This document shows positions 25,793 through 42,884 of a stretch of DNA of 64,000 nucleotides, piece by piece. The notes beneath the pieces were generated by a model. It saw only the letters and a list, made by a program, of their open reading frames with translations. It did not search any database and was not told the DNA's origin. Source of the stretch: Clostridiales bacterium (GTDB lineage Bacteria; Bacillota; Clostridia; Lachnospirales; Lachnospiraceae); contig JAHABX010000008.1 of NCBI GenBank assembly GCA_018376135.1, forward strand, positions 29,793 through 93,792, read 5' to 3'. Each line of letters begins with the position of its first letter. Position 1 is the first letter of the stretch. The position numbers and the translations under genes were made by a program.

Positions 25793-26302
25793 GTGATTCC
25801 GATGGAGATTCAAATGTCCGAGGAGGTCTCCCCAGACTATCTGGCAGAGGTGCAGCATATTTTTGCAGACAGAGAGTTCCTCTCCCTTGGTCAGTTCGTC
25901 CATCATCAGTGGACGAATCGTCTGATGCATAGTATCAATGTTTCCTATCTGTCCTGGCTGATGGCAAGAAAGCTTGGCTGCGATGAAAAGGCAGCGGCAA
26001 GAGCAGGGCTTCTGCATGATTTTTGTCCGTATGATTTCAAAGAAAAGACTCCCACAGGAGAGTTTCAGGCATTCTTTCATCCAAAGGCGGCAGCAGAGAA
26101 CAGTCTTCAGAGCTTTGCGATTAATAAAAGGGAGATGGATGCGATCCTGTCTCATATGTTCCCTCTTGGACCTGTCCCGAAGAACAAAGAAGCGTGGATC
26201 ATTACCGTTGCAGATAAGGTCTGTGCAGTTATGGAGGTCTGCCATGTGGCAATCGCCCTCGCCAGACGCAACCGTGTGGTTATTATGCCGGTAGCCGCGT
26301 AA
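25793..26302 (+). CDS. HD-domain phosphohydrolase
   Basis: H...HD motif (MHSINVSY...GLLHDF). 169 aa. The exact start is uncertain. Confidence 0.65.
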   Translation: MIPMEIQMSEEVSPDYLAEVQHIFADREFLSLGQFVHHQWTNRLMHSINVSYLSWLMARKLGCDEKAAARAGLLHDFCPYDFKEKTPTGEFQAFFHPKAAAENSLQSFAINKREMDAILSHMFPLGPVPKNKEAWIITVADKVCAVMEVCHVAIALARRNRVVIMPVAA

Positions 26303-26467
26303 GCAGTCAATAGAATACACAAAAGAAGCGATCAACCGGAAAGAACCATCCGGCTGACCGCTTCTTTTATTATAAGAACCCTCCGTGTGTAAGAGGACAT
26401 ATGCCCCTTGTACACGGAGGGTAAATTCATTCCTGTGATCTTGGCAGGACAGCGGTTTTCCATGAAA

Positions 26468-27877: not shown

Positions 27878-28043
27878 ATATATACTCCTTATCATTGGTA
27901 TCATGTATTCCAACATTATACCATGACCGCAGGAAAGGTCACCGGACATTTGCACAGAATTGTCCGAATGCAGGGAAAGCAGAAGCACAATTCCTTTTTT
28001 ATGCCATATTTATACAAAGAATGCATATGCAAGGAGTCTGCCT

Positions 28044-29765
28044 GTGAATTGTCGGGAAGCAATTATGTCGGAAAATTATATGGATTTTATATGGAAGATC
28101 GATGTGACACCGGGACTTCCGGAGGAGCTGCCGCTGGATGCCTGCGTTCAGTATGTGAACCGGAATTTCAGTGCGTTTTATCTGAGACGGGATGAGGTCT
28201 TCTCCTCGATGGAACGGATTCCCATCGGGGATTATGCGATTCCATTCTGCCATACCCAGATGGATACAGAAAGTCTGGAGGCGACAAGGATCCTTCCGAT
28301 CCAGAATCAGCCAGCCCTGAGTCTGAAAGGGAAAGGGGTGCTCCTTGGTTTTCTGGATTCCGGTATCTCATTGGAGAACGCTGTATTTCGGGATGGGAAC
28401 GGAAGGACAAGAGTGATAGGGCTGTGGGATCAGACGGATCAGAGCGGGACGCCGCCCAGAGGAATGCTGTATGGAAGTGCATATACAAAGGTTCAGATCG
28501 ATGCATGGCTGACTGAGGGCAGACAGGATCTGCCGGGGGCAGATGAGAATGGACATGGAACAAAGGTGGCGTCTATTGCGGCGGGATCTGCTATGCAGGA
28601 TGAAAATTTTATCGGGGCAGCTCCGGAAGCATCCATTGCTGTTGTGAAGCTGAAACAGGCAAAGTCCTTTATGCGCAGACTCCAGCAGATTCCACAGAAC
28701 AGCATCGCTTATCAGGAGAATGATATGATGCTTGCCATACGATATCTGGATATGCTGGCAGTAGAAGCGGATATGCCGCTTGTCATCTGCATTGCTCTTG
28801 GCAGTAACTCCGGCGGGCATACAGGATCAACGCCTCTGGGGCTGTATTTGGAGGATTTCACCAGAAGAGCCGGGAGAGCAATTGTAGTGGCAGGCGGAAA
28901 TGAAGGAAATCAGGCGCATCATTTCTTTGGTGTTGTTCCGGAGGAGCCGGGTTATCTGGATGTGGAGCTGCGGGTTGGTGAAGGCGAACCGGGATTTCAG
29001 CTCAATTTGTGGGGCAATGCACCAGGTACCTTTTCCGCGGAGATCACTTCTCCTGCCGGGGAGCGGATTCCCAGGATCTTTCCCCGGATACTGGAGCGGC
29101 AGAGATTTGACTTTGTCTTTGAAGATACGGTGCTGGATATTCAGTATGAGCTTACAGAGGTCATCTCCGGAGATGAACGGCTGCTCATTTCTTTTCGGAA
29201 TCCTACGCCGGGTATCTGGCGGCTGAGAATCTACTCTGCCGGAAATCTGGAAAACAGCTTTCATATCTGGCTTCCGGTGACAGGTTTTATAAATGAGGGG
29301 ACCTATTTCCTGCGTCCGGATCCGGATACGACGATCACAGAACCGGGAAATGTACAAAGAGTAATTACGGTTGCCGGATATGATGAAAAAACAGAAAGTA
29401 TCTGGATGGATTCCGGAAGAGGGTATACAAGAAATGACCATTTAAAACCGGATCTGGCAGCGCCTGCAGTGGAGGTATCCGCTATCGACCGTTTCGGAAG
29501 AAGCAGTACGCTGACCGGAACAAGTGCAGCTGCGGCATTGGGAGCAGGAGCCTGTACGCTGTTGATGGAATGGGGAATCGTGGAGGGGAATGTTCCGACA
29601 ATGGATTGTGTGACCATTCAGCGCTTTTTGATCCGCGGAGCCAGACGTCCGGCGGCATTTGAATTTCCCAACCGCTTTTGGGGGGCTTATGGAATTATAG
29701 TGTCATGTAAAAGCGGATGCTGTGGAGTTTCGGATGACAAGGAGTCTAAAAATAAATGCATATAA
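28044..29765 (+). CDS. S8 family (subtilisin-like) serine peptidase
   Basis: Catalytic Asp (GFLDSG), His (HGTKVAS) and Ser (GTSAAAALGAGA). A GTG start follows AAGGAGT. An alternative ATG lies 21 nt downstream. Confidence 0.75.
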   Translation: MNCREAIMSENYMDFIWKIDVTPGLPEELPLDACVQYVNRNFSAFYLRRDEVFSSMERIPIGDYAIPFCHTQMDTESLEATRILPIQNQPALSLKGKGVLLGFLDSGISLENAVFRDGNGRTRVIGLWDQTDQSGTPPRGMLYGSAYTKVQIDAWLTEGRQDLPGADENGHGTKVASIAAGSAMQDENFIGAAPEASIAVVKLKQAKSFMRRLQQIPQNSIAYQENDMMLAIRYLDMLAVEADMPLVICIALGSNSGGHTGSTPLGLYLEDFTRRAGRAIVVAGGNEGNQAHHFFGVVPEEPGYLDVELRVGEGEPGFQLNLWGNAPGTFSAEITSPAGERIPRIFPRILERQRFDFVFEDTVLDIQYELTEVISGDERLLISFRNPTPGIWRLRIYSAGNLENSFHIWLPVTGFINEGTYFLRPDPDTTITEPGNVQRVITVAGYDEKTESIWMDSGRGYTRNDHLKPDLAAPAVEVSAIDRFGRSSTLTGTSAAAALGAGACTLLMEWGIVEGNVPTMDCVTIQRFLIRGARRPAAFEFPNRFWGAYGIIVSCKSGCCGVSDDKESKNKCI

Positions 29766-29876
29766 AGAAAAAGGAATATAATGGATAAAGATTTTATTGT
29801 ACAGATACTTGTCAAGGGTTCAGGGCTTATGTTAGAATTATACAGAATATGAAGAAAATGGGGGGAGGAAACGCAA

Positions 29877-30671
29877 ATGTGCGGTGAATGGACACTGTAT
29901 GTCTGCGGAGCCAGAGGCTCTATGCCGGTACATGGAAGGGAATTTCAGGAATTTGGCGGAGCTACCAGCTGCTTTGTGGTGAAGAAGGGGACCTATGCGT
30001 TGATGGTGGACTGCGGAAGCGGTTTTTATCGGGCACGCGAGATTCTTGCGGAGTGTGTACAGGTAGATATTGTATTGACGCACCTTCATTACGATCACAT
30101 GATCGGACTTCTTGGCTATGGAGTGCTTCCAAAGCGGGCGAAAGTGAATTTCTACAGTACCTTTGACAGATGGTTTGGTTCAGAGACAATAAAGGAATTT
30201 TTCAGGGAGCCGTTCTGGCCGGTTGTGCCGGATATCGGGTCCTGTATTTCGGTGGAGTCGCCGGGAAGCATACAGCTGTCCGGCGGTATTGTGCTGTCTT
30301 TTTTTCCATCGGCACATCCGAATCAGGCAAATGTATGCAGACTTGAGATGGAAAACTTTGTACTCTGCATATCCTTTGACTATGAACATCTTGAAGAGCC
30401 TTCGGCGGCATTTCTGGAAGGCTGTGATCTGCTGATCTATGATGGCATGTATACAAAGGAAGAATATGAGCTTTATAAGGGATGGGGTCATTCCTGCTGG
30501 CAGGAGGGCTGCCGTCTTGCAAGGAAGTATAAGATCAGAAGGCTTCTGATCACGCATCACGGAACGACGCGTACGGACATGCAGCTAAGAGCCATGGAGG
30601 AGGAGGCGCGCCAGCATTTTCCCGGAGCAGCCTTTGCCCGTATGGGTGACCGGCTTGAACTTGTAAGGTGA
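29877..30671 (+). CDS. MBL-fold metallo-hydrolase
   Basis: LTHLHYDH metal-binding motif. RBS GGGGGGAGGAAA. Confidence 0.75.
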   Translation: MCGEWTLYVCGARGSMPVHGREFQEFGGATSCFVVKKGTYALMVDCGSGFYRAREILAECVQVDIVLTHLHYDHMIGLLGYGVLPKRAKVNFYSTFDRWFGSETIKEFFREPFWPVVPDIGSCISVESPGSIQLSGGIVLSFFPSAHPNQANVCRLEMENFVLCISFDYEHLEEPSAAFLEGCDLLIYDGMYTKEEYELYKGWGHSCWQEGCRLARKYKIRRLLITHHGTTRTDMQLRAMEEEARQHFPGAAFARMGDRLELVR

Positions 30672-30734
30672 AAAGAATCATACAGAAGATAAAAGAGAAC
30701 ATTGATACGAGAAAAGATGACGAGGAGAATGAAG

Positions 30735-33365
30735 ATGGGGGCTAAGATGAGAAAACGATGTTTTTCTGCTGCACTGGCGGTGATTTTTGCAGCCGGTGTT
30801 CTGTCTCCGCTGCCTTCCCGGGCTGCGGAGGTTCAGGTATCCGGACAGGAGGATACAGAAGTGGATCCGGAGAAGAATCCGGAGGAAGAGGTAATCCCGG
30901 AACCGGAGAAGAATCCGGAGGAAGAAGTAATCCCGGAACCGGAGAAGGAGCCGGAGGAAGAGGTAATCCCGGAGCCGGAGAAGAATCCGGAGGAAGAAGT
31001 GATCCCGATCCCGGAGAAAATCCCGGAGAAAGAAATAATTCCGGCTCCGGAAAATATTCTGGCAGAGGGAGACATGGAACCGTATATAATAGTTCCGGGC
31101 GGAGTAATCCGCACTCCGGAAGAGCTGCTGGCGTGGGTTGAATTTTTAGAAAGTGATCTGCCGTCGGACTGGACGATTCCGGCGATTACATTGGAAGCGG
31201 ATATTGATATGGCAGACTATTGTAATAAGAATCCGGAAACAGAGTGGAAGGGACTTGGTACAAAGGCTAATAAATTAAAAGGCTCTTTTGACGGAAAGGG
31301 GCATGTGGTGACGCTTCCGGGCAAAGGACCGGGACTGATCAACTATGCGTCGAATCTTGCACTTTCAAATGTAACAGTAAAGTCCGCAGCGCCCATCGAG
31401 TCATCCAATGAATATGGAGCAGCGGCAGGTATTGCCGCAAATGCAGAATACAGCACCATATCCAATTGTGTCAATCAGGCGGCAGTACAGAATTCCAGCG
31501 GAACGAGCCGTGAAAATATCTATGTGGGAGGTATTGTGGGCTATGCCAGCGATACGAAGATCGCTCATTGCTGGAACAGCGGCGTGATTACCGGAAGTCA
31601 GATTAATGGGAGTGAAAATGCCTATGCCGGTGGAATTGCAGGCGGTCTGTCCGCAGGGCAGGCGGCAGTGTCAGAATGCTTTAATATAGGAACCGTAAAG
31701 GGCAGTACTGCGGGCGGTATTGTTGGAAATATGAAAGACAGCAGCCTTAAAAACTGTTACAACAGCGGCTATGTTACAGGAGAAAATGCAGCAGGACTGG
31801 CAGGAGAGATGGAAGGAAGCTCTGTCATCACATCTATAAATACAGGAAGCGTGACTGCGGAGATAACTTCTAATCCGGTTGCAATTGCGTCTGGCGGCAC
31901 AGTCAAAAACTGTTATTATGACAATATCATCTGTAAGGGAACAGGTTCTGCCGGTTCAGAGGGAAAAACTACCTATGAGTTGTTGACCACAGGAAAGAGT
32001 CTGTGGACAGAGACGAATGACAGCTGGAATTATGAAGGCGGCTATTATCCGATGCTGAAGTTTTCTGCCGGTGATTCCGCCGCAGCAGCAAAGGTGGCTT
32101 CAGCCGCAGCCTATGTTCCTTCTGATGGATATGTAAGCCTCAGTGCGGGAAGCTGGTCTGCAGAAGGAGATGCGATTGATTTTGGCAGCAGTCTTAAACT
32201 GCCGTCTGTATTGACCTATGAGAATGGCGGATTTTCAAAGAATGTGGAGCTGCCGGATCCAGGATCCTGGTCAGGCGATTATTATGTGGTAACCGGTACG
32301 AAGCTGACTAAGTGGGATATTCCGATAAAAGTGCAGATTACTCTGGACGGGAAAGAGATACCGGCTCAGGGCGGAATTTATCAGCTGCCTTACAACAGCA
32401 GACCGGATATAAAGCTGACGGCTTCCGGAAGCGTTTCATTGGATAATCTGAAGTGGCTGGCACAGATCCCGGACGAAACGGGACTTACCTTATCCCCGGA
32501 TGCGGCGGGGACAGAGACCAGAATCACGGGAGCCGTTTCTCCGAAGCCGGGACAGGAAAGCTTCCGGATTCTGCTTTGTGCGGGAGTACCCGATCATTAT
32601 TACAATACATATGAATTTTACATTCAGGTAAAAGAGGGAGCGCCGGAGTTTGCAGTTACACTTCCGGAGGCAGAGCCGGATCCGGTCTATGATGGCAGAC
32701 CGGTAGAAGTTCTGTGCAGTCTGCCGGACGCCTCCGAGCAGCCCAATCTGGATAAATCTCAGATTGCCGTATCCTATTACTGCAAGGAGGGTTCTTCGGG
32801 CTGGATCCTTACGACTCCGGAAAACAGCGGAGCTTCGGCAGAAGGAAAGGAGCCTGTCCGGGCCGGGAGCTATAAGGCGGTGGTAAACTGTGCTGCAAAC
32901 GAATATTACCAGAGCGCACAAAAGGAGCTGGAATATACGATCCGCCAAAGAAGCCTGACAGACGCCATGCTCACGGATACAGACTGGTCAGTTCCGGAGT
33001 CTCTGAACAGTGCCGAGGCAAGAAAGCATGTGATCGTCCGGGAGACCGATACCGACATTGTGGAAGCCACAGGCAGAGAGCTTTTGAGGGAAGGAAAAGA
33101 GTATACGCTGACCTATGCAGGAACGACGGAATTGGGAACAGCATCAGTTACCGTCACCGGAATCGGAAATTATACAGGTACACTGGGGCGCAGCTATGAG
33201 ATACGGATCGGTTCCTGGCCCAATCGTTTGAAACCGGGAAATCCTTCTGTGCTGGGAGAGGGAAGCTGGTATCTGAAAGAACAGCCGGATGTGATCTATT
33301 ACGGCGGCAGCACATTTTGCGTGCCGAGTGAGGGAGAATATGTATTTCTTCCCGTATGGAGGTAA
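30735..33365 (+). CDS. large secreted/surface protein with a PEPEKNPEEEVI tandem repeat, GLUG-like Gly-rich repeats and Ig-like C-terminal domains
   Basis: Signal peptide. 4.5 copies of a 12-aa acidic repeat. Central repeats (AGGIAG / GGIVGY / AGGIVGN) resemble the GLUG motif. C-terminal beta-rich domains. Confidence 0.55.
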   Translation: MGAKMRKRCFSAALAVIFAAGVLSPLPSRAAEVQVSGQEDTEVDPEKNPEEEVIPEPEKNPEEEVIPEPEKEPEEEVIPEPEKNPEEEVIPIPEKIPEKEIIPAPENILAEGDMEPYIIVPGGVIRTPEELLAWVEFLESDLPSDWTIPAITLEADIDMADYCNKNPETEWKGLGTKANKLKGSFDGKGHVVTLPGKGPGLINYASNLALSNVTVKSAAPIESSNEYGAAAGIAANAEYSTISNCVNQAAVQNSSGTSRENIYVGGIVGYASDTKIAHCWNSGVITGSQINGSENAYAGGIAGGLSAGQAAVSECFNIGTVKGSTAGGIVGNMKDSSLKNCYNSGYVTGENAAGLAGEMEGSSVITSINTGSVTAEITSNPVAIASGGTVKNCYYDNIICKGTGSAGSEGKTTYELLTTGKSLWTETNDSWNYEGGYYPMLKFSAGDSAAAAKVASAAAYVPSDGYVSLSAGSWSAEGDAIDFGSSLKLPSVLTYENGGFSKNVELPDPGSWSGDYYVVTGTKLTKWDIPIKVQITLDGKEIPAQGGIYQLPYNSRPDIKLTASGSVSLDNLKWLAQIPDETGLTLSPDAAGTETRITGAVSPKPGQESFRILLCAGVPDHYYNTYEFYIQVKEGAPEFAVTLPEAEPDPVYDGRPVEVLCSLPDASEQPNLDKSQIAVSYYCKEGSSGWILTTPENSGASAEGKEPVRAGSYKAVVNCAANEYYQSAQKELEYTIRQRSLTDAMLTDTDWSVPESLNSAEARKHVIVRETDTDIVEATGRELLREGKEYTLTYAGTTELGTASVTVTGIGNYTGTLGRSYEIRIGSWPNRLKPGNPSVLGEGSWYLKEQPDVIYYGGSTFCVPSEGEYVFLPVWR
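30867..31052 (+). repeat. 36-nt tandem repeat (4 copies plus a degenerate one) encoding PEKNPEEEVIPE
   Basis: Directly visible near-identical 36-mers CCGGAGAAGAATCCGGAGGAAGA(G/A)GTAATCCCGGAA. Confidence 0.85.
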
Positions 33366-33376
33366 GGAAGAAGAGG

Positions 33377-34936
33377 ATGAAAGATATAAAAAAGATACTG
33401 GCAGCACTGGGCCTTCTGATGCTTGCTGCACTCATTCCGGCAGAAGCAAAGGCGGCTCCGGAAGCAAAGCAGGAAACTTCGGAGGTGAAGCAGACTGCCG
33501 GAGATGAGACCGAATGGGATATGACAGCAGACAAAATGAGCCTGGAACGGACAGAGGGCGATGTGATCGTCAAGAATGCAAAGGGAAAAGAGGTAACCCT
33601 TCGTGAGGGTGCAAAGCTTTTCAACGGCTATCAGATCACTACGGGAGAAGGCTACGCCTGGCTGAGCCTTGACGATACAAAGCTTATCAAGCTGGACTGG
33701 AATTCCAGAGTGACCATAAAGAAAAACGACAAAAAGCTGGATGTTATGCTGGAGAGCGGAAGTCTGTTCTTCAATATCAGCGAGCCGCTGGCAGAGGAAG
33801 AGAGCCTGGATATCCGGTCTGCTACCATGTCGACCGGAATTCGGGGGACCCTTGGACTTTTGTTCACCCAGAAGAGTGATGATTATCTGGACATGAAGGC
33901 AGTTTCTCATGCGGAGCTCTACGAAGGAAAGCTGGCTGTTTCCTATCACGGAAAGGATGGAAAGGTCATATTGACGGAGATGGAATCCGGCAGCCGGGAG
34001 ACCGTACGGACGATCCGCGAAAACTGTGATGGGGCGGCGTCTGCTCCCCTTTCAACAGGTATGCTCGACGGCATGTCTGTAAAGGATGCGCTGATGGAAT
34101 GTGGTTTTATAGCCATAGAGGTGAAAAATGATCCGGGACTGCAGGAGCGTCTGCTTCAGGGAGACAATGATATTGACGAAAAGGGACTGCAGGAGATCAT
34201 AGACCATGCCGAGGAACAGCTGGAAATGGATCAGAAGGAGCATCGGCTTCGTACAGCGGAGATAGAAAAAGAGCTGGAAAAGATAAAGGAACAGTTTGTG
34301 TCTCAGGGAGAGGGACCCGTGATGGATCAGGTATTTGGCGAAAAGACAGATCTGCCGGAGCTTCAGGAAGAGCCGGATCCTTTCGAGGAGCCGGACATTC
34401 TGGATGAACCGAAGATTCCGGAAGAGATCATGGAAGAAATAATGGAAGAAACGCAGACAGAAGGCGGACAGGAACCGGAGACGGAAGCCGGAACCACAAC
34501 GGAAGATCCGGGACAGGGAGAGGATGAGTCGGAATCCGAAGGCAGCTCAGAGGACAGAGATGAGACGGATCCCGGAGAGGAAGAGGGACCTGCAGAAGAA
34601 CCCGTGCTGCCGACTGACCCGGATCCCGACCCGACGCCGGATCCAACACCGGAACCGGACCCTGACCCGACACCGGATCCCGACCCCGATCCGACACCGG
34701 ACCCTGACCCGACACCGGAGCCGGAAGAAAAGACATTTACGATCCGCTTTGAAAGTGCAGACGGAAAACCTTTTGCAATACAGGCGGTAAAAGAGGGAAG
34801 TAAAGCAAAGAAACCGATCCTGATGCCGGAGGCATCCGGAGCATGGCAGGCGGATGGACAGGATTATGATTTTAGTGCGGAAGTGACAAAGGACCTGACG
34901 CTCAGATGGAAGAACACTGGCGGAGCCGGAGCATGA
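33377..34936 (+). CDS. secreted FecR-domain protein with a (D/T)P-rich linker
   Basis: Signal peptide. A FecR-like beta domain (VTLREGAKLFNGYQITTGEGYAWLSLDD...VTIKKNDKKLDVMLESGSLFFNI). A PDPDPTPDPTPEP low-complexity linker. RBS GGAGGTAAGGAAG. Confidence 0.55.
   Translation: MKDIKKILAALGLLMLAALIPAEAKAAPEAKQETSEVKQTAGDETEWDMTADKMSLERTEGDVIVKNAKGKEVTLREGAKLFNGYQITTGEGYAWLSLDDTKLIKLDWNSRVTIKKNDKKLDVMLESGSLFFNISEPLAEEESLDIRSATMSTGIRGTLGLLFTQKSDDYLDMKAVSHAELYEGKLAVSYHGKDGKVILTEMESGSRETVRTIRENCDGAASAPLSTGMLDGMSVKDALMECGFIAIEVKNDPGLQERLLQGDNDIDEKGLQEIIDHAEEQLEMDQKEHRLRTAEIEKELEKIKEQFVSQGEGPVMDQVFGEKTDLPELQEEPDPFEEPDILDEPKIPEEIMEEIMEETQTEGGQEPETEAGTTTEDPGQGEDESESEGSSEDRDETDPGEEEGPAEEPVLPTDPDPDPTPDPTPEPDPDPTPDPDPDPTPDPDPTPEPEEKTFTIRFESADGKPFAIQAVKEGSKAKKPILMPEASGAWQADGQDYDFSAEVTKDLTLRWKNTGGAGA
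34610..34725 (+). repeat. low-complexity CCGGA(T/C)CC(C/G)GAC repeats encoding (P-D/T/E)n
   Basis: Visible in sequence; it lies inside the FecR-domain gene. Confidence 0.6.
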
Positions 34937-36741
34937 AAGTAATATTTCAGAGAGAGACCGATTTTAGAAAGCTCAGAGCAGTATTGATCTCCGCGGCTGT
35001 TCTTCTGGTGGCTGGAAGCGGTCTTCTCTATACGCTGGACAGGCAGTTCGGAGACTGGCTGTATGAGAGAGAAAGCAGTCCGGATGAGCGTATTTTTGTA
35101 ATCGGTATTGATACCTATGCCATGGAGCAGATAGGGGCATGGCCCTGGGACAGGGCAGTCATGGCAGAGATTCTTGAGACCTTAAATGCAGATCCCGGGA
35201 GCAGACCTGCAGCCATTGGGCTGGATGTGGTATATGCCGGGGAGACCAGTGAGGAATCTGACAGGCGGCTGGTGGAAGCTGCTTCGGCAGGGAACGTGGC
35301 AGTGGCGTGTACCGTAAATTTTGAGAACAGCCTGATCCTGGAGGCAGACGGAAGTGCATATATGGATGCATTTGTTTCCACCGGAGCTTCCATGCCCTTC
35401 GAAACGCTGACGGCAGAGGTACGGACAGGACATATCAATGCTATGTATGACAAGGACGGGGTGCTCAGGAGACATCTCTGGTCTGTAGAAACGGCGGAAG
35501 GGGAGACCCTGTATTCTCTGCCGGAGGTGCTGGTGGATCTGTACTGCGAAGCAAACGGTATGGATACAGATTATAAGCCCCGGACGGATCAGAGAGGCTT
35601 CTGGTGGGTGGATTTCAGCGCCCAGCCGGGAGATTACTATTACTGTTCGGCTGCGGACATTCTGGACGGAGCCTATGACCCGGATATGCTGGAGGGAGCC
35701 ATAGTTCTGATTGGTCCTTACGAAGCGTCCATGTCTGATGATTTTGTGACACCGGCGGACCGGGCAAAGCGCATGTATGGTGTGGAGTATATGGCGAATG
35801 TGACCGCCAATATCCTGCAGCAGAATGAGAAGACAGAGCTTCCTCATGAGCTTCAGCTTATGCTTTTGTTCGCAGCCTGTATGGGGTGTGCCATGATTTT
35901 CCGTGAAATGAAAATGAGATGGATTTTTGTGGTATATGCAGGGATTCTGATCCTGTGTACCGCAGGCTTTTACGGATTTTACAGACAGGGATATATCATG
36001 CATCCGCTCTGGTTTTTGGCAGGGCTCAGTATTCTGTTCCTCAGTTCGCTGGTAGAGCAGTATACGCTGGCGGTCAGGGAAAGGCATCATGTAAGAAAGA
36101 CCTTTGAACGCTATGTAGACCCGGCGATCATCCGTGAGCTTTTGAAGGATGACGAGGCTTCGCAGGCACTCACGGGAAGAACGAAGAATATTGCGGTGCT
36201 GTTCGTGGATATTCGTGGATTTACGACCATGTCAGAGGAGCTTCCACCAGAGGAGGTCGTCCAGATCCTCAATGAATATCTGACGCTTACCAGCCGATGT
36301 GTGAAAAAGAGGAAAGGGACGCTGGACAAATTTATCGGGGACTGTACCATGGCATTCTGGGGAGCGCCCTTGAAGTGCATGGATCCGATCTATCAGGCGT
36401 GCAAGGCGGCTATGGATATGGTGGAGGGAGCCAGACCTTTGGAGGAAAAGCTTCTGAAACGCTTTGGCAGAGCGGTAAGCTTTGGTGTAGGAGTTCACTA
36501 CGGACCTGCCGTCGTGGGAAATATCGGAGCCCCGGACAGAATGGACTATACCGCGATCGGAGACACCGTCAATACGGCGTCCCGTCTGGAGTCCAAGGCA
36601 CCGCCGGGAACCATTTATATCAGCCGGATTGTGGCGGATATGCTGGGAGAGCGGGCAGTGACAGAGTCTCTGGAGAAGAAATTATTACTGAAGGGAAAGA
36701 CGGAAGGCATGGAAGTGCTGATATTGAAGGAGCTTAAGTAG
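34933..36741 (+). CDS. CHASE2-domain class III adenylate cyclase
   Basis: N-terminal TM and extracytoplasmic CHASE2-like region, C-terminal TM cluster, then a class III cyclase domain. Metal Asp residues FVDIRGFT and FIGDCTMAFWG. Substrate-specifying Lys (DKFIGD) and Asp (MDYTAIGDTVNTASR) indicate ATP. The ATG overlaps the upstream stop (ATGA). Confidence 0.8.
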   Translation: MKVIFQRETDFRKLRAVLISAAVLLVAGSGLLYTLDRQFGDWLYERESSPDERIFVIGIDTYAMEQIGAWPWDRAVMAEILETLNADPGSRPAAIGLDVVYAGETSEESDRRLVEAASAGNVAVACTVNFENSLILEADGSAYMDAFVSTGASMPFETLTAEVRTGHINAMYDKDGVLRRHLWSVETAEGETLYSLPEVLVDLYCEANGMDTDYKPRTDQRGFWWVDFSAQPGDYYYCSAADILDGAYDPDMLEGAIVLIGPYEASMSDDFVTPADRAKRMYGVEYMANVTANILQQNEKTELPHELQLMLLFAACMGCAMIFREMKMRWIFVVYAGILILCTAGFYGFYRQGYIMHPLWFLAGLSILFLSSLVEQYTLAVRERHHVRKTFERYVDPAIIRELLKDDEASQALTGRTKNIAVLFVDIRGFTTMSEELPPEEVVQILNEYLTLTSRCVKKRKGTLDKFIGDCTMAFWGAPLKCMDPIYQACKAAMDMVEGARPLEEKLLKRFGRAVSFGVGVHYGPAVVGNIGAPDRMDYTAIGDTVNTASRLESKAPPGTIYISRIVADMLGERAVTESLEKKLLLKGKTEGMEVLILKELK

Positions 36742-37800
36742 ATGGAAAAAGAGATACAGGAGTTGGACGGACAAAAGAAAAAGTATGTACTGGCAGGGCT
36801 TGTTGCGGTGATTCTTATAGCGGCAGTCGTTATTGCGGTTCTGCTGACGGGGAATGACAGAAGAGATGCGGTTCTTCGGTCACCTACGGGGATTCTGTAC
36901 GGAAGCGACGGGAATCTGTATCTGACGGATCAGGGGGGAAACAGCATCCTGCGCATGGATGAAGGGAACGTGAAACTGATCGCCGGTTATATGCTTCCGG
37001 CGGATATTTATGGAGATGCCATAGGCAGCTACGGGGATGGTACCTGGGATAAAGCGTTTTTTAATGCTCCCTTTGATCTGGAGGAATGGGGCGGAGGTCT
37101 TGCGGTCAGTGATACGGGAAATAACTGTATCCGGCTGGCAGCTTCGGACGGGATTGTCCGCACGCTTGCCGGCACGACAGTACAGGGCTGTCAGAACGGT
37201 ATGGCATATGAGGCAACCTTCTATGAGCCGAAAGGGATAGCGGCAGGTCCGGACGGAAGTCTTTATATTGCGGACAGCGGCAACGGAGTTATCCGCAGAC
37301 TGAGCGAGGACGGGCAGGTAGAGACGGTGGTTGGAGATATGGATACGCCTGTGGGGCTGAGCTGGGATGGCGACGTGCTTTATATTACGGATGCAGGAAC
37401 CAGTCAGATCCTGAAATATGAAAATGGAGAGCTGTCAGTGGTTGCAGGAGCCGCATATACCGATGAAGAGAGATCGCTTTTGGACGGAGATGCACAGAAC
37501 GCAGTCTTCTCGGCACCTCAGGGAATTCTGGCACAGGATGGCATGATCTATGTGGCGGATACCGGATTTTCTGCCATCCGCAGAATAAAGGACGGACAGG
37601 TGGACACCATTTCCATTTTTGAGGGGACAGGCAGCAATCTCTGGCCGGCAGGTCCTACGGGCATGGAAATGAAGGCCGGAAATCTCCTGATCGCAGATCC
37701 TTATTCGGGTGTAATATTTGAGGTTAAGGATCCGGATGAAACGCAGGCTGACGAAAATTATCATGAATTTCAATTAAATTTTTATAAAAAAATATATTGA
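36742..37800 (+). CDS. membrane-anchored NHL-repeat (beta-propeller) protein
   Basis: N-terminal TM, then repeated blades (GNLYLTDQGGNSILRM; LYIADSGNGVIRRL; LYITDAGTSQILKY; IYVADTGFSAIRRI). It starts 1 nt after the cyclase stop. Confidence 0.65.
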   Translation: MEKEIQELDGQKKKYVLAGLVAVILIAAVVIAVLLTGNDRRDAVLRSPTGILYGSDGNLYLTDQGGNSILRMDEGNVKLIAGYMLPADIYGDAIGSYGDGTWDKAFFNAPFDLEEWGGGLAVSDTGNNCIRLAASDGIVRTLAGTTVQGCQNGMAYEATFYEPKGIAAGPDGSLYIADSGNGVIRRLSEDGQVETVVGDMDTPVGLSWDGDVLYITDAGTSQILKYENGELSVVAGAAYTDEERSLLDGDAQNAVFSAPQGILAQDGMIYVADTGFSAIRRIKDGQVDTISIFEGTGSNLWPAGPTGMEMKAGNLLIADPYSGVIFEVKDPDETQADENYHEFQLNFYKKIY

Positions 37801-37835
37801 CAATCAATTCTGTTGGGTGTATGCTTTACGGCGTA

Positions 37836-37985
37836 AAGGCAATGGGGTCTTTAAGAAATCATTCTTAGAGCTTCATTGCCTTTCGTTATACCGGGAAATC
37901 TGATCATCAGGAGCAGAAAATCTTCCCTCGAAGAAGGCAATGGCGTCTTTAATGTTTTTAAACATTAAGGGCGCTTTTATTTTAT
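37836..37985 (+). promoter_or_regulatory. repeat-containing leader / putative transcription attenuator upstream of the amt-glnK fusion
   Basis: Two copies of AAGGCAATGG(G/C)GTCTTTAA at 37837 and 37934. A 10-bp inverted repeat AAAGGCAATG...CATTGCCTTT. A terminator-like hairpin GCGTCTTTAATGTTT...AAACATTAAGGGCGC plus TTTTATTTTAT ends ~30 nt before the RBS. Confidence 0.35.
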
Positions 37986-38017
37986 AGATATTTATGGAAA
38001 TCAAGGAGGAAATTTAT

Positions 38018-39748
38018 ATGGCAGTAGAAATGGTAATCGACACAGTCTGGGTATTTCTTGCAGCAATTCTGGTGTTTTTTATGAATCTGGGTTTTGCTTC
38101 TGTAGAAGCGGGTATGGCCAGATCAAAGAATACGGTAAACATTTTGTCAAAGAACTTTATTGTATTTGCAGTATCTTCTTTGGGATTTATATTACTGGGA
38201 TGGGGCCTGATGTTTGGCGGTGACAATCCGTTCATAGGAACACAGAACTTATTTATTCTCGGAACAGAGGACCATTCTTTTTATGATAATACATTGACTT
38301 CAAATGTACCGTTTTGGGGTAAATTCTTCTTCCAGCTGGTGTTCTGCGGAACGGCTGCAACGATTGTTTCCGGGGCTGTTGCGGAAAGAGTAAAGTATAT
38401 ATCGTTTATTCTTTTTTCCTTTGTACTTACCCTGTTCATTTACCCGATCGTAGGACACTGGGTATGGGGAGGAGGCTGGCTTGCGGATCTTGGATTTGTG
38501 GATTTTGCAGGAGATACCGTAGTACATTCCCTGGGTGGATGGTCAGCCCTGTCCGGAGCAATGATTTTAGGACCCCGTATCGGCAAGTATGGTAAGGACG
38601 GAAAGCCTCGTGCAATTCCGGGACATAATATGTCATTGGCAGTGATTGGTTTATTTGTACTGTGGCTTGGATGGTTCGGCTTTAACCCGGGTTCTACTAT
38701 GAGTTTTCAGAATCCGGCAGATGTGATGTACATTTTGATGACAACCAATACTTCTGCTGTCGCAGCAGTTATTACCTCAACGGCAGCTGCATGGATTTTC
38801 CTCGGGAAACCGGATTTGGGCATGACGATCAACGGATGTCTGGCAGGTCTGGTAGGTATTACCGGAAGCTGTGCATATGTTACGGTAGAAGCCTCTCTTA
38901 TTATAGGTGCTGCTGCAGGTGTTATTGTAGTATTTGCAGTTATGTTTTTTGACCGTATCAAAATCGATGATCCGGTTGGTGCAACAAGTGTACATCTGTG
39001 CTGTGGTGTTTTTGGTACGATTTGTGTCGGGTTGTTTGCAAAAGAAGGTGTTACAACACTTTCAGCAAGAAATGGTCTGTTCTACGGCGGAGGCTTTGAA
39101 CTTCTTGGAGTAGAGCTGATCGGTATTGCAGCTGTTGGTGCTTTTGCATTTATTACGTCTTCTCTTGTATGGCTTGCACTCAAGGCTACGGTTGGAATCA
39201 GAGTATCCGCAGAAGAAGAAATTGCAGGTTTGGATATTGGTGAACATGGAAACATGGCTTATCCTGATTTTGTAATCTCTATGGAGAAATATACAGAGGA
39301 TGCGGAAGCGGTTGTTGCTGATCAGATGGCGGAAGATATGATATCAGAGGCGGCTCCTGTGAAGAGCGAATCTGAAAGAGCAGAAAGTGCTCATAAGTTC
39401 AGCAAAGTACAGATTATCTGTAAGGAAGCCAGACTGGAAGCCTTAAAGAAATCTATGAATGAGCTTGGAATTACAGGTATGACGGTATCTCATGTGGTTG
39501 GCTGCGGAGTGCAGAAGGGTAAACCGGAATATTATCGCGGTGCACCTGTAGAGACCAATCTCCTTCCGAAGGTACAGGTTGATATGGTTGTAAGTAAGGT
39601 GCCTGTAAGGAAGGTGATCGAAACTGCCAAGAAGGTACTTTATACCGGACACATCGGAGACGGTAAGATATTCGTGTATGATGTGGAAAATGTCATAAAG
39701 GTGCGTACCGGTGAAGAGGGATATGACGCCCTGCAGGATGTGGAATAA
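38018..39748 (+). CDS. amt: ammonium transporter (Amt) fused to a C-terminal PII nitrogen-regulatory (GlnK/GlnB) domain
   Basis: Amt/MEP 11-TM core (FMNLGFASVEAG..., C-terminal EEEIAGLDIGEHGNMAYPDF). A ~45-aa acidic linker. A complete PII domain (GITGMTV, T-loop GVQKGKPEYYRGAP, GDGKIFV, KVRTGEEG). It is a single uninterrupted 576-aa frame. Confidence 0.85.
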   Translation: MAVEMVIDTVWVFLAAILVFFMNLGFASVEAGMARSKNTVNILSKNFIVFAVSSLGFILLGWGLMFGGDNPFIGTQNLFILGTEDHSFYDNTLTSNVPFWGKFFFQLVFCGTAATIVSGAVAERVKYISFILFSFVLTLFIYPIVGHWVWGGGWLADLGFVDFAGDTVVHSLGGWSALSGAMILGPRIGKYGKDGKPRAIPGHNMSLAVIGLFVLWLGWFGFNPGSTMSFQNPADVMYILMTTNTSAVAAVITSTAAAWIFLGKPDLGMTINGCLAGLVGITGSCAYVTVEASLIIGAAAGVIVVFAVMFFDRIKIDDPVGATSVHLCCGVFGTICVGLFAKEGVTTLSARNGLFYGGGFELLGVELIGIAAVGAFAFITSSLVWLALKATVGIRVSAEEEIAGLDIGEHGNMAYPDFVISMEKYTEDAEAVVADQMAEDMISEAAPVKSESERAESAHKFSKVQIICKEARLEALKKSMNELGITGMTVSHVVGCGVQKGKPEYYRGAPVETNLLPKVQVDMVVSKVPVRKVIETAKKVLYTGHIGDGKIFVYDVENVIKVRTGEEGYDALQDVE

Positions 39749-39799
39749 TGAAACGGGCATGTCTGCTGATGCAGACATCACCTCCGTGTATAATAACCC

Positions 39800-39836
39800 T
39801 GAGAGGATTTTTCAGTCCTCTTGGGGCTGTTTTTTT
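39800..39836 (+). terminator. rho-independent terminator after the amt-glnK fusion
   Basis: GAGGATTTTTCAGTCCTC followed by TTGGGGCTGTTTTTTT. A second hairpin lies at 39757-39780. Confidence 0.55.
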
Positions 39837-39899
39837 GCCGGTCATAGGACAATCTGCCCGGATAATAGATATATAAGGAAGAAATCCGGGGAGCAGGAC

Positions 39900-40172
39900 A
39901 TGACAGAGCTGACAAAGGAAATACTTGATGAAATGGCTGCGGTGGATATCCGGGATGTGGATATGAACAGGCTGACTGATTTCAGGGATATTGTGATCGA
40001 TACCAAAAAGCCTGTTCCGGAAAAGCTCCGGTCTTTTGCGGAGCAGTCGGGCAATGTCTATATACACCGGATGGGGGATTATATTGTCAAGGTACGTTTT
40101 CAGGAGAACGGTCCCGGTATTGATGACAAGATGGAGGAATATTTAAGACGGCTTGCAGAAATTCATATTTAG
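39900..40172 (+). CDS. small hypothetical protein at the element's left end (90 aa)
   Basis: M64 of the tracked ORF follows GGGGAGCAGG. Charged and soluble. It lies immediately upstream of the first recombinase. Confidence 0.4.
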   Translation: MTELTKEILDEMAAVDIRDVDMNRLTDFRDIVIDTKKPVPEKLRSFAEQSGNVYIHRMGDYIVKVRFQENGPGIDDKMEEYLRRLAEIHI

Positions 40173-40192
40173 AAAGGTCAGGAGTGATACAC

Positions 40193-41875
40193 ATGAAAGA
40201 TACACATTTTCTGGCTGCCATGTACCTCCGTCTTTCAAGGGATGACAAGGATATGGGGAATATGGCGGGCAGGGACGGTCCCATGAAAACCGAGAGCAGC
40301 AGCATCGGAAGTCAGAGAGAACTCATCAGAACCTTCATCAGGGAGCAGCCGGACATAGAGCTTTACGACATCTATGTGGATGACGGTTTTTCAGGGAGCA
40401 ATTTCGACAGACCAGAATTTAAGAGAATGATTAGTGACATTGAAGCAGGCAGGGTAAACTGCGTGATCGTAAAAGATCTGTCCCGCTTCGGACGCGATTA
40501 TATTGAAGCCGGGAGGTACCTTCAAAAAATCTTCCCGGACTTGGGTGTGCGTTTTATTGCACTTACGGACCACTATGACAGCATCCGTGCAGATACAGGA
40601 GAAAGCTCCATTGTTCTTCCTGTTAAAAATTTTATCAACGATTCCTATTGTCGGGATATTTCAACAAAGGTAAAGAGCCAGCTTGAGGTAAAACGAAAAA
40701 ACGGAGAGTGTATTGCTCCGTTTGCTGTGTACGGATACCGGAAAAGCGGGGCGGATCACAACAGGCTTGTCGTTGACGAATACGCAGCGGAAAATGTGCG
40801 GAAGATTTTTGCATGGAAGATAGAGGGCGTTGCAGTCTCGGAGATTGCAGATACCTTAAACCGTCTGGGAATTCTGTCGCCAAAGGAGTATAAAAAATCA
40901 CTGGGACTTCATTACAACGGAGGATTTTCCGGTACGGGGACAGCTCTCTGGAGCAGTGCCTCTGTCAGGAGAATTCTGACCAATGAAGTATATCTGGGAC
41001 ATCTGGTGCAGGGCAAAACGGAAAAGGTAAATTATAAGGTAAGGAAAAATACAGAGAAACCAAAAGAGGAATGGATAAAGGTTGAAAATACCCATGAACC
41101 GGTTGTACCGGAGGATGATTTCCTGATCGTACAGAATCTTTTGAAAGCAGACGGACGTAAAAGCCCGGAAACGGGAACTGTCAGTCCGTTTGCGGGACTT
41201 TTGTTCTGCGGGGATTGTGGGGAGCAGATGGTAAGGAGGAGAAACCGTTATAAGGATACGGTGAAGGTCTACTATATCTGTTCCACAAAAAACCGGGGAG
41301 ACGGCTGCAGCAGACACAGTATTGAGGAACAGACATTAAAGGGTATTGTGACGGAAAGTGTGAGGCATTATGTAAATACCTTCTTGGAAGAAAAACAGTT
41401 TTTTGAGAGATCCGTGCAGCTTAAAACAAATTTTAAGTCGGTATTTCTCTATGAGCAGGAAATCAAAAGGCTGAAAAAGGAACAGGAAAAATATGAAAAG
41501 CTCTGCTCCGGGCTGTATAAGGATCTGAGCAGAGGCATTATTTCCAATGAGGAATTTGAACGCCTGCACGGCGGCTTTTGGCAGAAGGCAGAGAAACTGG
41601 AAGAAGCACTGAAAAAGCAGAAGCAGTTTATTCAGGAAATGTGCAGAAAAGGAGTGCTTTCCGCCGGGCGGCTGAAGATATTTCAGGACTGTGCGGAGGT
41701 CAGAGACATAGACCGCCGTTCCCTGTGCAGTCTGGTAAAGAGGATAGAGATCTATGAAGACCGGCAGATAGAGATAGAATTTTACTTTTCAGACAGTTAC
41801 CGGGCAATGCAGGCTGGAAATCAGAGAATCAGGATGGACAGATCCAGACTGTGTGCAGTGGAGAGGAGTGCATAA
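40193..41875 (+). CDS. large serine recombinase (resolvase/invertase N-domain + recombinase + zinc-ribbon/coiled-coil)
   Basis: Catalytic-Ser region AAMYLRLSRDD, VIVKDLSRFGRDY. C-terminal Cys cluster (CGDCGEQ...C..C) and coiled coil. 560 aa. Confidence 0.85.
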   Translation: MKDTHFLAAMYLRLSRDDKDMGNMAGRDGPMKTESSSIGSQRELIRTFIREQPDIELYDIYVDDGFSGSNFDRPEFKRMISDIEAGRVNCVIVKDLSRFGRDYIEAGRYLQKIFPDLGVRFIALTDHYDSIRADTGESSIVLPVKNFINDSYCRDISTKVKSQLEVKRKNGECIAPFAVYGYRKSGADHNRLVVDEYAAENVRKIFAWKIEGVAVSEIADTLNRLGILSPKEYKKSLGLHYNGGFSGTGTALWSSASVRRILTNEVYLGHLVQGKTEKVNYKVRKNTEKPKEEWIKVENTHEPVVPEDDFLIVQNLLKADGRKSPETGTVSPFAGLLFCGDCGEQMVRRRNRYKDTVKVYYICSTKNRGDGCSRHSIEEQTLKGIVTESVRHYVNTFLEEKQFFERSVQLKTNFKSVFLYEQEIKRLKKEQEKYEKLCSGLYKDLSRGIISNEEFERLHGGFWQKAEKLEEALKKQKQFIQEMCRKGVLSAGRLKIFQDCAEVRDIDRRSLCSLVKRIEIYEDRQIEIEFYFSDSYRAMQAGNQRIRMDRSRLCAVERSA

Positions 41876-41876
41876 G

Positions 41877-42881
41877 GTGGCAAGAATATCCAAGCGGTTG
41901 GCGGCACAGAAGAATGTGCAGAAAACCGTGCAGAAGATACGGTACAAAGCAGGCATTTATGCGAGGCTTTCCTCCGATCAGGACACAGAAAAAAATGAAT
42001 CTGTGAATGTGCAGACTGCCATTGCAGAAAAATATGTGGAGGACTGGAACCGGAAACATACAGAACAGATCACGGTAGCGGACCGTTATATAGATTTGGG
42101 AAAGACCGGCAGCAATTTTAACCGTGACGAATTTCAGAGGCTGATGCAGGATATCCGGCTTGGAATCATCAACTGTGTCATAGTCAAGGATCTTTCCCGT
42201 TTTGGCAGGAATTATCTGGAGGTCGGGAATTATATAGAGAAAATTTTCCCGTTCTTAGGTGTGCGTTTCATAGCGGTAACGGACGGACTGGACACCGGAG
42301 ACAGAGGAGGCGGCACAGAGCAGCGGTCAGCCGCTATGGCAATGGAGATCAAAAATCTTGTCAATGATATGTATGCAAAGGACTTTTCCGTAAAAGCGAA
42401 GCAGAATCTGAAACAGAGGAGAGAGGCAGGCTCTTATGTGGGCGGACCGCCGCCGTATGGCTATCTTACAGGCCGGGAGGGAAAAATACGGGTACTGCTG
42501 CCCGATGAAAATACTGCAGAGCTGGTAAGGTATATGTTTGAGCGTTTTATTCAGTCAGAAAGCTTTGCCGCTGTTGCCGATGATCTGAACAGCAGGAAGA
42601 TCAATCCACCTGCTGTTTATAAGAAAACAGGCGAAGTATTCTGGAGCGCTGATATGGGATTGTACAGGGGATGGGATAAGGGTGCCGTAGAACGGATCAT
42701 AAAAAGCAGGACGTATACCGGAATGCTGGTTCAGGGAAAGACCTCCGTCACGGCGAGAGACGAAAGCAATCGTATCCATAATCCGGAAGAAGACTGGGTG
42801 ATAACAGAAAATGCACATGAGCCTCTTATTGGGATGGAAGTTTTCAGGCAGGCAGAGCAGATATACAGGAAGGAGCGGTAG
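41877..42881 (+). CDS. serine recombinase (shorter; lacks the long C-terminal extension)
   Basis: AGIYARLSSDQD, VIVKDLSRFGRNY. A GTG start follows GGAGAGGAG. 334 aa. Confidence 0.75.
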   Translation: MARISKRLAAQKNVQKTVQKIRYKAGIYARLSSDQDTEKNESVNVQTAIAEKYVEDWNRKHTEQITVADRYIDLGKTGSNFNRDEFQRLMQDIRLGIINCVIVKDLSRFGRNYLEVGNYIEKIFPFLGVRFIAVTDGLDTGDRGGGTEQRSAAMAMEIKNLVNDMYAKDFSVKAKQNLKQRREAGSYVGGPPPYGYLTGREGKIRVLLPDENTAELVRYMFERFIQSESFAAVADDLNSRKINPPAVYKKTGEVFWSADMGLYRGWDKGAVERIIKSRTYTGMLVQGKTSVTARDESNRIHNPEEDWVITENAHEPLIGMEVFRQAEQIYRKER

Positions 42882-42884
42882 GGC

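Follow-up and report, generated by a model that had tools for sequence, protein, structure and literature searches.

Several of the described systems closest to the locus considered here pair the sensor domain CHASE2 with a FecR-domain protein. A gene cluster of Campylobacterota combines a CHASE2 cyclase with a cyclic AMP (cAMP) phosphodiesterase, a FecR-domain outer-membrane protein and a tetratricopeptide repeat (TPR) protein (Mo et al. 2022, PMC9239204), and clusters of this type have spread across phyla by horizontal transfer (PMC9239204). The CyaD1, CyaD2 and CyaK proteins of Sinorhizobium meliloti are the only CHASE2 cyclases with genetics; they respond to a signal from outside, of plant origin and presumed to be proteinaceous (PMC5498481, PMC13001267), and the same pathway includes FecR-domain and TPR proteins (PMC5498481). 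In the BiofilmReg operon of Burkholderia, which encodes a response regulator, a LysM-FecR protein and a CHASE2 histidine kinase, a periplasmic FecR-domain protein likewise stands beside a CHASE2 sensor (PMC5192318). Here we analyze a CHASE2 cyclase locus from a gut clostridial genome, contained in a stretch of 64,000 nucleotides (hereafter the window; contig JAHABX010000008.1 of GenBank assembly GCA_018376135.1, Lachnospiraceae), the positions of which are used throughout.

Around the cyclase gene the window encodes what we predict to be a single operon of five genes (29877-37800; Table 1), comprising in order a metallo-β-lactamase (MBL)-fold hydrolase, a GLUG surface protein, a FecR-domain protein, the CHASE2 cyclase and an NHL propeller protein. 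A first-pass annotation of this DNA had recognised the last three as a translationally coupled unit; their open reading frames (ORFs) were recovered at the positions it gave, all on the plus strand, and Pfam matched the CHASE2, FecR and NHL domains. A unit of three genes is nonetheless too small, as only 11 nt, which contain a purine-rich Shine-Dalgarno region, separate the GLUG stop codon from the FecR ATG, and the stop codon of the MBL gene lies about 75 nt upstream of the likely GLUG start (30747). The FecR and cyclase genes share 4 nt (ATGA), as had been proposed, whereas the supposed 1-nt junction between the cyclase and NHL genes is an abutment without overlap, the cyclase stop codon TAG (36739-36741) being followed directly by the NHL ATG at 36742 (0-nt gap). 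Overlapping or abutting junctions recur in close relatives. The MBL ATG at 29877 is preceded by a GGAGG Shine-Dalgarno sequence and, further upstream, by a promoter-like site that matches 10 of 12 consensus positions in a consensus scan; by this match to the consensus alone it is a candidate operon promoter. At the other end, a terminator-like hairpin located 142 nt past the NHL stop may mark the end of the operon, form part of the leader of the Amt-PII gene downstream, or both. Rfam, searched at the gathering threshold over the window, found nothing in the operon, a T-box and a 6S RNA being the sole matches. We regard it as moderately probable that these five genes form one operon with the overall mechanism set out below, namely a cAMP-making CHASE2 cyclase with surface co-sensors and an MBL enzyme that resets the signal.

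As in the Campylobacterota cluster, a cyclase, an extracytoplasmic FecR protein and a candidate phosphodiesterase (its role being deduced) stand together in the window (29877-36741). An Arcobacteraceae locus among our comparison set (L080) shows the published layout, with a Crp-like cNMP_binding gene, the cyclase, TPR/barrel proteins and FecR-cadherin proteins. The window version differs from it in being Gram-positive, in the lack of a TPR/β-barrel protein (there is no Pfam TPR match in the operon) and in the presence of a membrane-anchored NHL protein and a GLUG protein in the accessory positions. Further, it has a secreted FecR protein with an acidic linker and a Flg_new-like end and lacks an adjacent Crp-type receptor, its relatives instead using GAF-HD-GYP or GAF-GGDEF proteins. 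With the S. meliloti proteins it shares the architecture of CHASE2 followed by a class III cyclase domain (PMC5498481, PMC13001267), but there Clr, a Crp-like protein, serves as receptor and has among its downstream targets the FecR-domain protein SMc02177, which is dispensable for perception; no NHL partner is known. In the Burkholderia operon the output is a histidine kinase, the FecR protein bears LysM, and there is neither an NHL protein nor a phosphodiesterase. Hence the first-pass description of an under-described signalling system holds mainly for the NHL and GLUG partners and the Firmicutes version, the core being published in Campylobacterota (PMC9239204). These two partners of a CHASE2 cyclase look undescribed, and nothing relevant came up when the literature was searched for CHASE2 and NHL in combination. 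New in this locus and its relatives are the Firmicutes version with NHL and GLUG proteins, a FecR-NHL fusion, the pervasive neighbouring GAF proteins joined to enzymes of cyclic di-GMP (c-di-GMP) metabolism, and an alternation between MBL and TIM-barrel proteins.

The CHASE2 domain of the cyclase covers residues ~21-315 and the catalytic domain residues 416-593. Hydropathy places a first transmembrane (TM) helix at residues 17-35, CHASE2 outside, three TM helices within residues 305-373 and the catalytic domain in the cytoplasm; this is the CHASE2 sensor layout, with the domain held between an N-terminal TM helix and a three-TM cluster. In an alignment of 20 homologues (45-100% identity) the metal-binding aspartates D426 (FVDIRGFT) and D470 (KFIGDCTMA), K466 (DKFIGD) and T540, the transition-state residues N547 and R551 (TVNTASR) and the LKGK motif are all invariant. 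Thus, no metal-binding aspartate has been lost, and the invariance of all six canonical catalytic positions rules out a pseudo-cyclase. Among solved structures the catalytic domain comes closest to CyaC of Spirulina platensis (PDB 1wc0/1wc1, E 7e-28), with the corresponding region of which both metal aspartates align; the two proteins have in common these aspartates, the Lys and Thr of the substrate pair and the Asn and Arg of the transition state (PDB 1wc0; PMC2613629), but have unlike sensor modules, CyaC being without CHASE2. In the alignment the segment 'RMDYTAIGDTVNTASRL' pairs with 'RSDFTAIGPSVNIAARL' of CyaC, and T540 of MDYTAIGD falls on the Thr of CyaC 'DFTAIG'. This alignment identifies the second specificity residue as Thr540 and not Asp538 as first annotated, while the Lys of DKFIGD and the predicted conversion of ATP to cAMP both stand. 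A Thr in place of the substrate-binding Asp is described as the hallmark of class IIIb (PMC2613629), to which the Lys-Thr pair K466/T540 assigns the cyclase. Its predicted substrate is ATP and its predicted product cAMP; the Lys-Thr pair and the alignment to CyaC argue against a guanylate cyclase, a reading that we rejected. The CHASE2 topology and intact catalytic residues accordingly agree with the initial view of the locus as an extracytoplasmic-sensing class III cyclase module predicted to use ATP. Prokaryotic class IIIb members tested to date all respond to inorganic carbon in the form of CO2/bicarbonate (PMC2613629), and the class IIIb signature predicts the same sensitivity for this cyclase, which might be of relevance in the gut.

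The catalytic domain also matches the PADLOC PycC models (best score 100.6 bits), and faint Apyc1 Pfam matches occur in some homologues of the MBL protein. These matches would fit a Pycsar-like antiphage system, in which the cyclase makes cCMP or cUMP and an Apyc1-like MBL protein serves as regulator. However, PycC and the class III cyclases belong to the same superfamily, and Pfam Guanylate_cyc matches with an equivalent score. PADLOC matches only the cyclase, and neither operon nor window encodes a TM or TIR effector that binds cyclic nucleotide monophosphates (cNMP; PycTM, PycTIR). The cyclase has a CHASE2 ectodomain and the class IIIb Lys-Thr pair, its partners are extracytoplasmic, and the cassette is located among housekeeping genes. 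We therefore rejected a Pycsar defence system, given the missing effector, the ectodomain and the housekeeping context, and allow it only the slightest probability.

A protein search with the cyclase returned more than 7000 homologues; all 120 listed contain CHASE2 and Guanylate_cyc across the full length, and their named sources are Clostridia, Oscillospiraceae, Faecalibacterium, Erysipelotrichaceae and similar metagenome-assembled genomes. Most model Firmicutes are reported to lack adenylate cyclases, which a minority of Clostridia possess (PMC5217690). The first-pass statement that cAMP is rare in Firmicutes and Clostridia thus fits the literature but does not extend to this cyclase family at the level of genomes: judged by its homologues, the family is anything but rare in Clostridia of gut and rumen.

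The FecR protein begins with a signal-peptide-like hydrophobic segment (hydropathy), followed by the FecR domain (residues ~50-190), an acidic Pro/Glu/Asp linker and a C-terminal domain of ~60 residues. Pfam detection of FecR above the cut-off (Table 1) and the signal-like N-terminus bear out the earlier call of a secreted FecR-like protein, and the orthologue in the nearest relative (L085) scores 31.4 bits with Pfam FecR. The FecR domain is 43% identical (E 1e-30) to that of a protein at locus L088 which consists of FecR, an acidic linker and eight Flg_new repeats. The last ~60 residues give a weak BLASTP alignment to these repeats (E 0.003), suggesting a weak resemblance of the C-terminal domain to the Listeria-Bacteroides (Flg_new) repeat; Pfam run on the C-terminal 80 residues did not call Flg_new. 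FecR domains also occur in anti-sigma factors, and the Pfam match, together with a weak NCBIfam match to a Leptospira anti-sigma family, might point to a FecR-type anti-sigma factor that serves an extracytoplasmic function (ECF) sigma factor independently of the cyclase. However, the FecR domain directly follows a cleavable-type signal peptide, with no cytoplasmic anti-sigma N-domain, its gene and the cyclase gene have 4 nt in common, and Pfam scans of the 64-kb window, operon included, found no sigma-70 r2/r4 protein, ECF sigma gene or TonB-dependent receptor. The absence of both the sigma factor and the anti-sigma N-domain rules out a FecI/FecR system, and an anti-sigma role of this protein is hardly credible. 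A FecR protein stands beside a CHASE2 histidine kinase in Burkholderia (PMC5192318) and beside a CHASE2 cyclase in Campylobacterota (PMC9239204). Because FecR accompanies CHASE2 with kinase or cyclase output alike, it appears to be tied to the CHASE2 sensor domain.

A single TM helix near the N-terminus (residues 16-34), preceded by a cytoplasmic stub of ~15 residues, anchors the NHL protein, whose propeller is predicted from hydropathy to face outward. An AlphaFold2 model (pLDDT 90) shows a helix at residues 2-37 and then 24 strands that form a six-bladed propeller. Foldseek matches include the NHL domains of SOQ1 and NHLRC2, a bacterial teneurin-like protein and the PknD sensor domain (1rwi); the best match to NHL domains has an E of 5e-18, and enzymatic propellers such as the Vgb lyase fit less well. 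The NHL score, the TM helix and the confident propeller model together uphold the earlier description of a membrane-tethered NHL-repeat protein. The likeness to PknD of Mycobacterium tuberculosis extends to the arrangement, a six-bladed NHL propeller held outside the membrane on a single TM anchor, which in PknD serves as a sensor module (PDB 1rwi). The PknD propeller is, however, fused to its own kinase, whereas that of the window is a separate protein encoded beside the cyclase.

The GLUG gene had been noted only as coding for a surface protein directly upstream of the other three; this position is confirmed, and the gene itself turns out to be a conserved operon member. Its ORF opens at a TTG at 30702, with the likely start at ATG 30747, giving 872 residues. 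The product has a signal-like N-terminus, a Pro/Glu-rich repeat, GLUG repeats detected by Pfam and C-terminal β-rich domains. It aligns over its full length with the proteins that occupy the corresponding place in L001 (27% identity, E 3e-43) and L003 (24% identity, E 3e-20), and because of this full-length homology we take it to be a fast-evolving orthologous member of the operon and no accidental neighbour.

The partners are conserved and linked in relatives. We defined a close clade of loci whose cyclase is at least 54% identical to that of the window, and its eight members with enough flank (L001, L003, L085, L086, L168-L171) all encode GLUG-like, FecR, cyclase and NHL proteins in this order. 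Seven of these (L001, L003, L086, L168-L171) show a six-gene cassette encoding the MBL protein, a 260-residue GAF protein, a large surface protein, FecR, the cyclase and NHL; the window cassette keeps the MBL gene and has no GAF gene, hence five genes. In L085, whose cyclase is 80% identical, the order is surface protein, FecR, cyclase, NHL and NUDIX. Giant proteins of 3.7-4.3 thousand residues without a Pfam hit are encoded directly upstream of the MBL gene in L003, L086 and L168-L171; the matching position of the window holds a subtilase gene.

The association also holds when approached from the NHL side. We searched metagenomes with an alignment of the NHL proteins of 12 cyclase loci, which are 27-74% identical and align over the whole propeller, and obtained 80 loci; the motif being generic, most of these encode unrelated NHL proteins and only the best-scoring ones are informative. 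Among the 12 best relatives, seven adjoin a CHASE2 cyclase and three more adjoin, or are fused to, FecR, while four further loci with cyclase, FecR and NHL appear lower in the list. The weaker matches have a FecR neighbour only in L101 and L141 and a cyclase in none. NHL homologues at 45-47% identity again lie within the six-gene cassette, and an L172 homologue (36% identical) has no adjoining cyclase. At L090 (896-7855) a single protein of 2319 residues carries, according to Pfam, an N-terminal FecR domain, eight Flg_new repeats, BspA-type leucine-rich repeats (LRR_5), SLH domains and a C-terminal NHL propeller, and thus appears as a natural fusion of two partners that are separate in the window. 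The mode of surface attachment varies among the NHL relatives, which use an N-terminal TM helix, SLH domains or Cu_amine_oxidN1 'stalk' domains. By these linkages, which hold in both directions, one specific subfamily of NHL proteins recurs as a partner of the FecR/CHASE2 systems of Firmicutes.

To place the cassette in a wider context we surveyed one genome per species (80 loci), searching ORFs with hidden Markov models (HMMs) iterated from the partners in the window, L001 and L003; genes were counted within 6 kb of the cyclase at loci with at least 5 kb of flank (48 in Firmicutes, 19 in other phyla), and key cases were checked with Pfam. A FecR-domain protein is present at 36 of the 48 Firmicutes loci and 10 of the 19 others. 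A GAF protein occurs at 31/48 (20 with HD-GYP, 11 with GGDEF) and 4/19, and the MBL hydrolase at 18/48 and 5/19, with MBL-GAF fusions at 5/48 and 1/19. The NHL propeller was found at six Firmicutes loci, all with FecR, and at none in other phyla; the loci that bear it include Clostridium aestuarii, three Paenibacillus species and a Defluviitaleaceae genome. A TIM-barrel protein of ~260 residues (AP_endonuc_2) is encoded at 18/48 Firmicutes loci and at none of the 19 others. The MBL and TIM-barrel genes never occur together in Firmicutes, and one or the other is present at 36/48 loci. This AP_endonuc_2/xylose-isomerase-like protein takes the place of MBL beside CHASE2 cyclase and GAF-HD-GYP genes (L023-L026, L029-L031, L034, L036-L038, L042, L043, L045, L047, L052, L058, L065, L067, L069), and it may represent a non-orthologous displacement of MBL by an unrecognised family of cNMP phosphodiesterases.

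The 260-residue GAF protein of the close relatives is closest to cNMP-binding GAF domains, namely 5w10 (E 8e-18), CyaB2 of Anabaena (1ykd) and PDE10A (2zmf). We take 5w10 to be the cAMP-bound GAF domain of Leptospira Lcd1, which the depositor name of the entry does not state. The GAF-HD-GYP neighbours match PmGH (4mcw) and the same set of cNMP-binding GAF domains. Activation by cAMP has been established by experiment for a GAF-GGDEF protein (Lcd1 of Leptospira) and a GAF-HD-GYP protein (Tlr0485 of Thermosynechococcus) (PMC8846402), and related cassettes encode proteins of both kinds, whereas the window has no such gene and its close relatives have the stand-alone 260-residue GAF protein alone.

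A candidate phosphodiesterase is found as the first gene of the same operon rather than elsewhere. In the MBL protein the metal ligands H69, H71, D73 and H74 (HxHxDH), H147, D168 and H205 are invariant, and as hydropathy reveals no TM segment or signal peptide, it is predicted to be cytoplasmic. Its AlphaFold2 model (pLDDT 94) best matches YhfI of Bacillus subtilis (6kns/6knt; E 1e-15, TM-score 0.74-0.80) and BA1088 of B. anthracis (1zkp), which rank above PhnP-type enzymes, RNase Z and Apyc1 in both structure and PDB sequence searches. YhfI strongly favours cAMP/cGMP (PMC9117128) and belongs with the cAMP phosphodiesterases Rv1339 of M. tuberculosis and CpdA of Corynebacterium glutamicum to the 'atypical class II' group of PF12706 (PMC9293780). 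With these enzymes, to which phage Apyc1 is related, the window protein shares HxHxDH and the other metal ligands (PMC9293780, PMC9117128), a length of ~260 residues without an RNase Z-type insertion, and YhfI as top PDB neighbour; it is, however, just 20-23% identical to YhfI and below every curated NCBIfam cut-off. Two MBL neighbours of CHASE2 cyclases recovered with the same HMM (L061, L082) exceed the Pfam PDEase_II cut-off. Pfam confirmed an MBL-GAF-GGDEF fusion in L012, and MBL is also fused to GAF-HD-GYP in related loci. Fusions to PilZ, which binds c-di-GMP, or to the receiver domain REC occur in homologues P0172, P0179, P0190 and P0191 and further tie the family to signal transduction. 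On this comparative evidence the MBL protein is likely a cAMP phosphodiesterase.

The same gene could instead encode an unrelated housekeeping nuclease of the RNase Z/ElaC type, leaving GLUG, FecR, cyclase and NHL as the signalling unit. In NCBIfam the RNase Z models come out on top for the MBL protein, though far below the cut-off, the closest relative L085 has no MBL gene beside its cassette, and the 75-nt gap separates the MBL gene from the GLUG gene. The protein is nevertheless shorter, at 264 residues, than the 269-307 residues modelled in the RNase Z chains of the same search, and its nearest structures are YhfI and BA1088. Its family is fused to GAF-GGDEF, GAF-HD-GYP, PilZ or REC and adjoins CHASE2 cyclases both in Firmicutes and in other phyla at the frequencies given above. 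We consider a housekeeping nuclease distinctly improbable and retain the cAMP phosphodiesterase as the preferred assignment.

Taken together, these observations suggest the following mechanism. The cyclase would act as a homodimeric class IIIb enzyme with CHASE2 outside and a catalytic domain that turns ATP into cAMP. The secreted FecR, membrane-anchored NHL and secreted GLUG proteins might be accessory or co-sensor proteins that bind an external cue, probably macromolecular or carried on a surface, or present it to CHASE2, or that gate the response of CHASE2. Breakdown of cAMP by the cytoplasmic MBL enzyme would reset the signal. In related genomes the cassette probably adds a cAMP-type GAF receptor, either stand-alone or fused to HD-GYP or GGDEF, so that the family-wide route might run from an external cue through the CHASE2 cyclase, cAMP and GAF to c-di-GMP turnover. 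Because the receptor gene is missing from the window cassette, the output in this organism is presumably encoded elsewhere.

Several points weigh against this scheme. Co-transcription of the five genes is deduced solely from their spacing. The NHL protein accompanies a minority of Firmicutes CHASE2 cyclases (6/48). No GAF, cNMP_binding or Crp domain was found by Pfam among the ~50 proteins of the 64-kb window, and in the nearest relative, L085, the MBL and GAF genes are both absent beside the cassette; since both are absent there and the receptor is absent in the window, phosphodiesterase and receptor appear to be dispensable neighbours. The NCBIfam 'cyclic nucleotide-degrading phosphodiesterase' model gives the MBL protein 34.8 bits against a cut-off of 400, and RNase Z models score highest, all models being far below their cut-offs. 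Finally, the FecR-domain protein of S. meliloti that is regulated by the CHASE2-cyclase pathway is dispensable for signal perception (PMC5498481), which we view as the main experimental caution against a simple co-receptor role of FecR.

The S. meliloti result also bears on the alternative that the surface proteins are output or cargo, i.e. that GLUG, FecR and NHL are adhesion or cell-wall structures co-expressed with, or controlled by, the cyclase, and that CHASE2 alone senses an unrelated small ligand. There the cAMP regulator has the FecR and TPR proteins among its targets, and perception does not depend on them (PMC5498481), and here all three proteins are surface-retained, their relatives bear adhesin-like Flg_new, LRR_5, SLH, cadherin-like and Cu_amine_oxidN1 domains, and relatives encode the giant proteins noted above just upstream. 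Yet FecR follows CHASE2 whatever the output domain (PMC5192318, PMC9239204), genes coupled in translation to a sensor gene typically encode subunits of one complex, and the linkage is reciprocal and confined to one NHL subfamily. A cargo role is thus unlikely in our judgement, and we continue to favour the surface proteins as co-sensors. In its most specific form, which we put forward only tentatively as a possibility, FecR, NHL and GLUG would constitute a co-receptor on CHASE2 for a macromolecular or particle-borne cue (for instance a host glycan, plant fibre or a neighbouring cell), as the input of a widespread cAMP to c-di-GMP pathway in gut and rumen Clostridia that is reset by MBL hydrolases or, in other lineages, by TIM-barrel hydrolases.

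We know of no ligand or activation mechanism for CHASE2 domains. Were the co-receptor to exist, it would provide a first handle on what CHASE2 domains sense and would make cAMP a mainstream messenger in a major gut phylum. The three conserved extracytoplasmic partners, with their translational coupling, and the FecR-NHL fusion supply concrete binding candidates for CHASE2. The cyclase family is present in thousands in gut and rumen Clostridia despite cAMP being held absent from most model Firmicutes, and its usual neighbours (a candidate phosphodiesterase, and enzymes of c-di-GMP metabolism joined to GAF domains of the cAMP type) predict a relay from cAMP to c-di-GMP that could control surface behaviour in abundant commensals.

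Table 1. Positions of the predicted operon, its signals and the surrounding features in the window
Feature	Position	Strand	Remarks
MBL-fold hydrolase gene	29877-30671	+	264 aa; Pfam Lactamase_B_2 (PF12706) 45.5 bits
GLUG surface protein gene	30747-33365	+	~872 aa; Pfam Glug (PF07581) 30.2 bits, cut-off 20.5
FecR-domain protein gene	33377-34936	+	519 aa; Pfam FecR (PF04773) 27.6 bits, cut-off 24
CHASE2 cyclase gene	34933-36741	+	602 aa; CHASE2 149.1 bits, Guanylate_cyc 98.7 bits
CHASE2 domain (PF05226) of cyclase	34993-35877		149.1 bits, cut-off 26.3
Catalytic domain of cyclase	36178-36711
NHL propeller gene	36742-37800	+	352 aa; NHL (PF01436) 65.1 bits
Promoter-like site	29809-29838	+	TTGTCA, 18-nt spacer, TAGAAT, with TG; upstream of MBL gene
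Terminator-like hairpin and T-run	37942-37985	+	Strong hairpin (37942-37975), 15-bp stem (consensus scan); 142 nt past NHL stop
T-box leader	311-565		Ahead of isopropylmalate-synthase-like gene; above Rfam gathering threshold
Isopropylmalate-synthase-like gene	671-2329
6S RNA gene	7988-8176		Above Rfam gathering threshold
Zinc phospholipase C-like gene	24776-25573
PLD-like gene	26468-27988	-
S8 subtilase gene	27960-29765
Promoter-like site in Amt-gene leader	37797-37825
Amt-gene leader	37800-37994
Amt-PII gene	37994-39748		One 584-aa ORF
DUF6870 gene and serine recombinase genes	39711-44456		Recombinase genes 40184-41875, 41853-42881, 42885-44456

The wider surroundings are those of a spore-forming clostridium, as deduced from the SpoIID, SpoIVA and CotH genes that also lie in the window. 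Upstream of the operon a cluster of genes for secreted or lipid-active enzymes (24776-29765) encodes the zinc phospholipase C-like, PLD-like and subtilase proteins. Downstream of it the DUF6870 gene, which is followed by three large serine recombinase genes, probably marks the edge of an integrated mobile element. Between operon and element a single ORF fuses an ammonium transporter (Amt) to a P-II (GlnK-like) domain. Its leader, which matched no Rfam family at the gathering threshold, contains a promoter-like site, two related hairpins with the common sequence 'GGCAATGG(G/C)GTCTTTAA' and, just before the ATG, the terminator-like stem of 15 bp with its T-run; from this arrangement it may function as a nitrogen-responsive attenuator.

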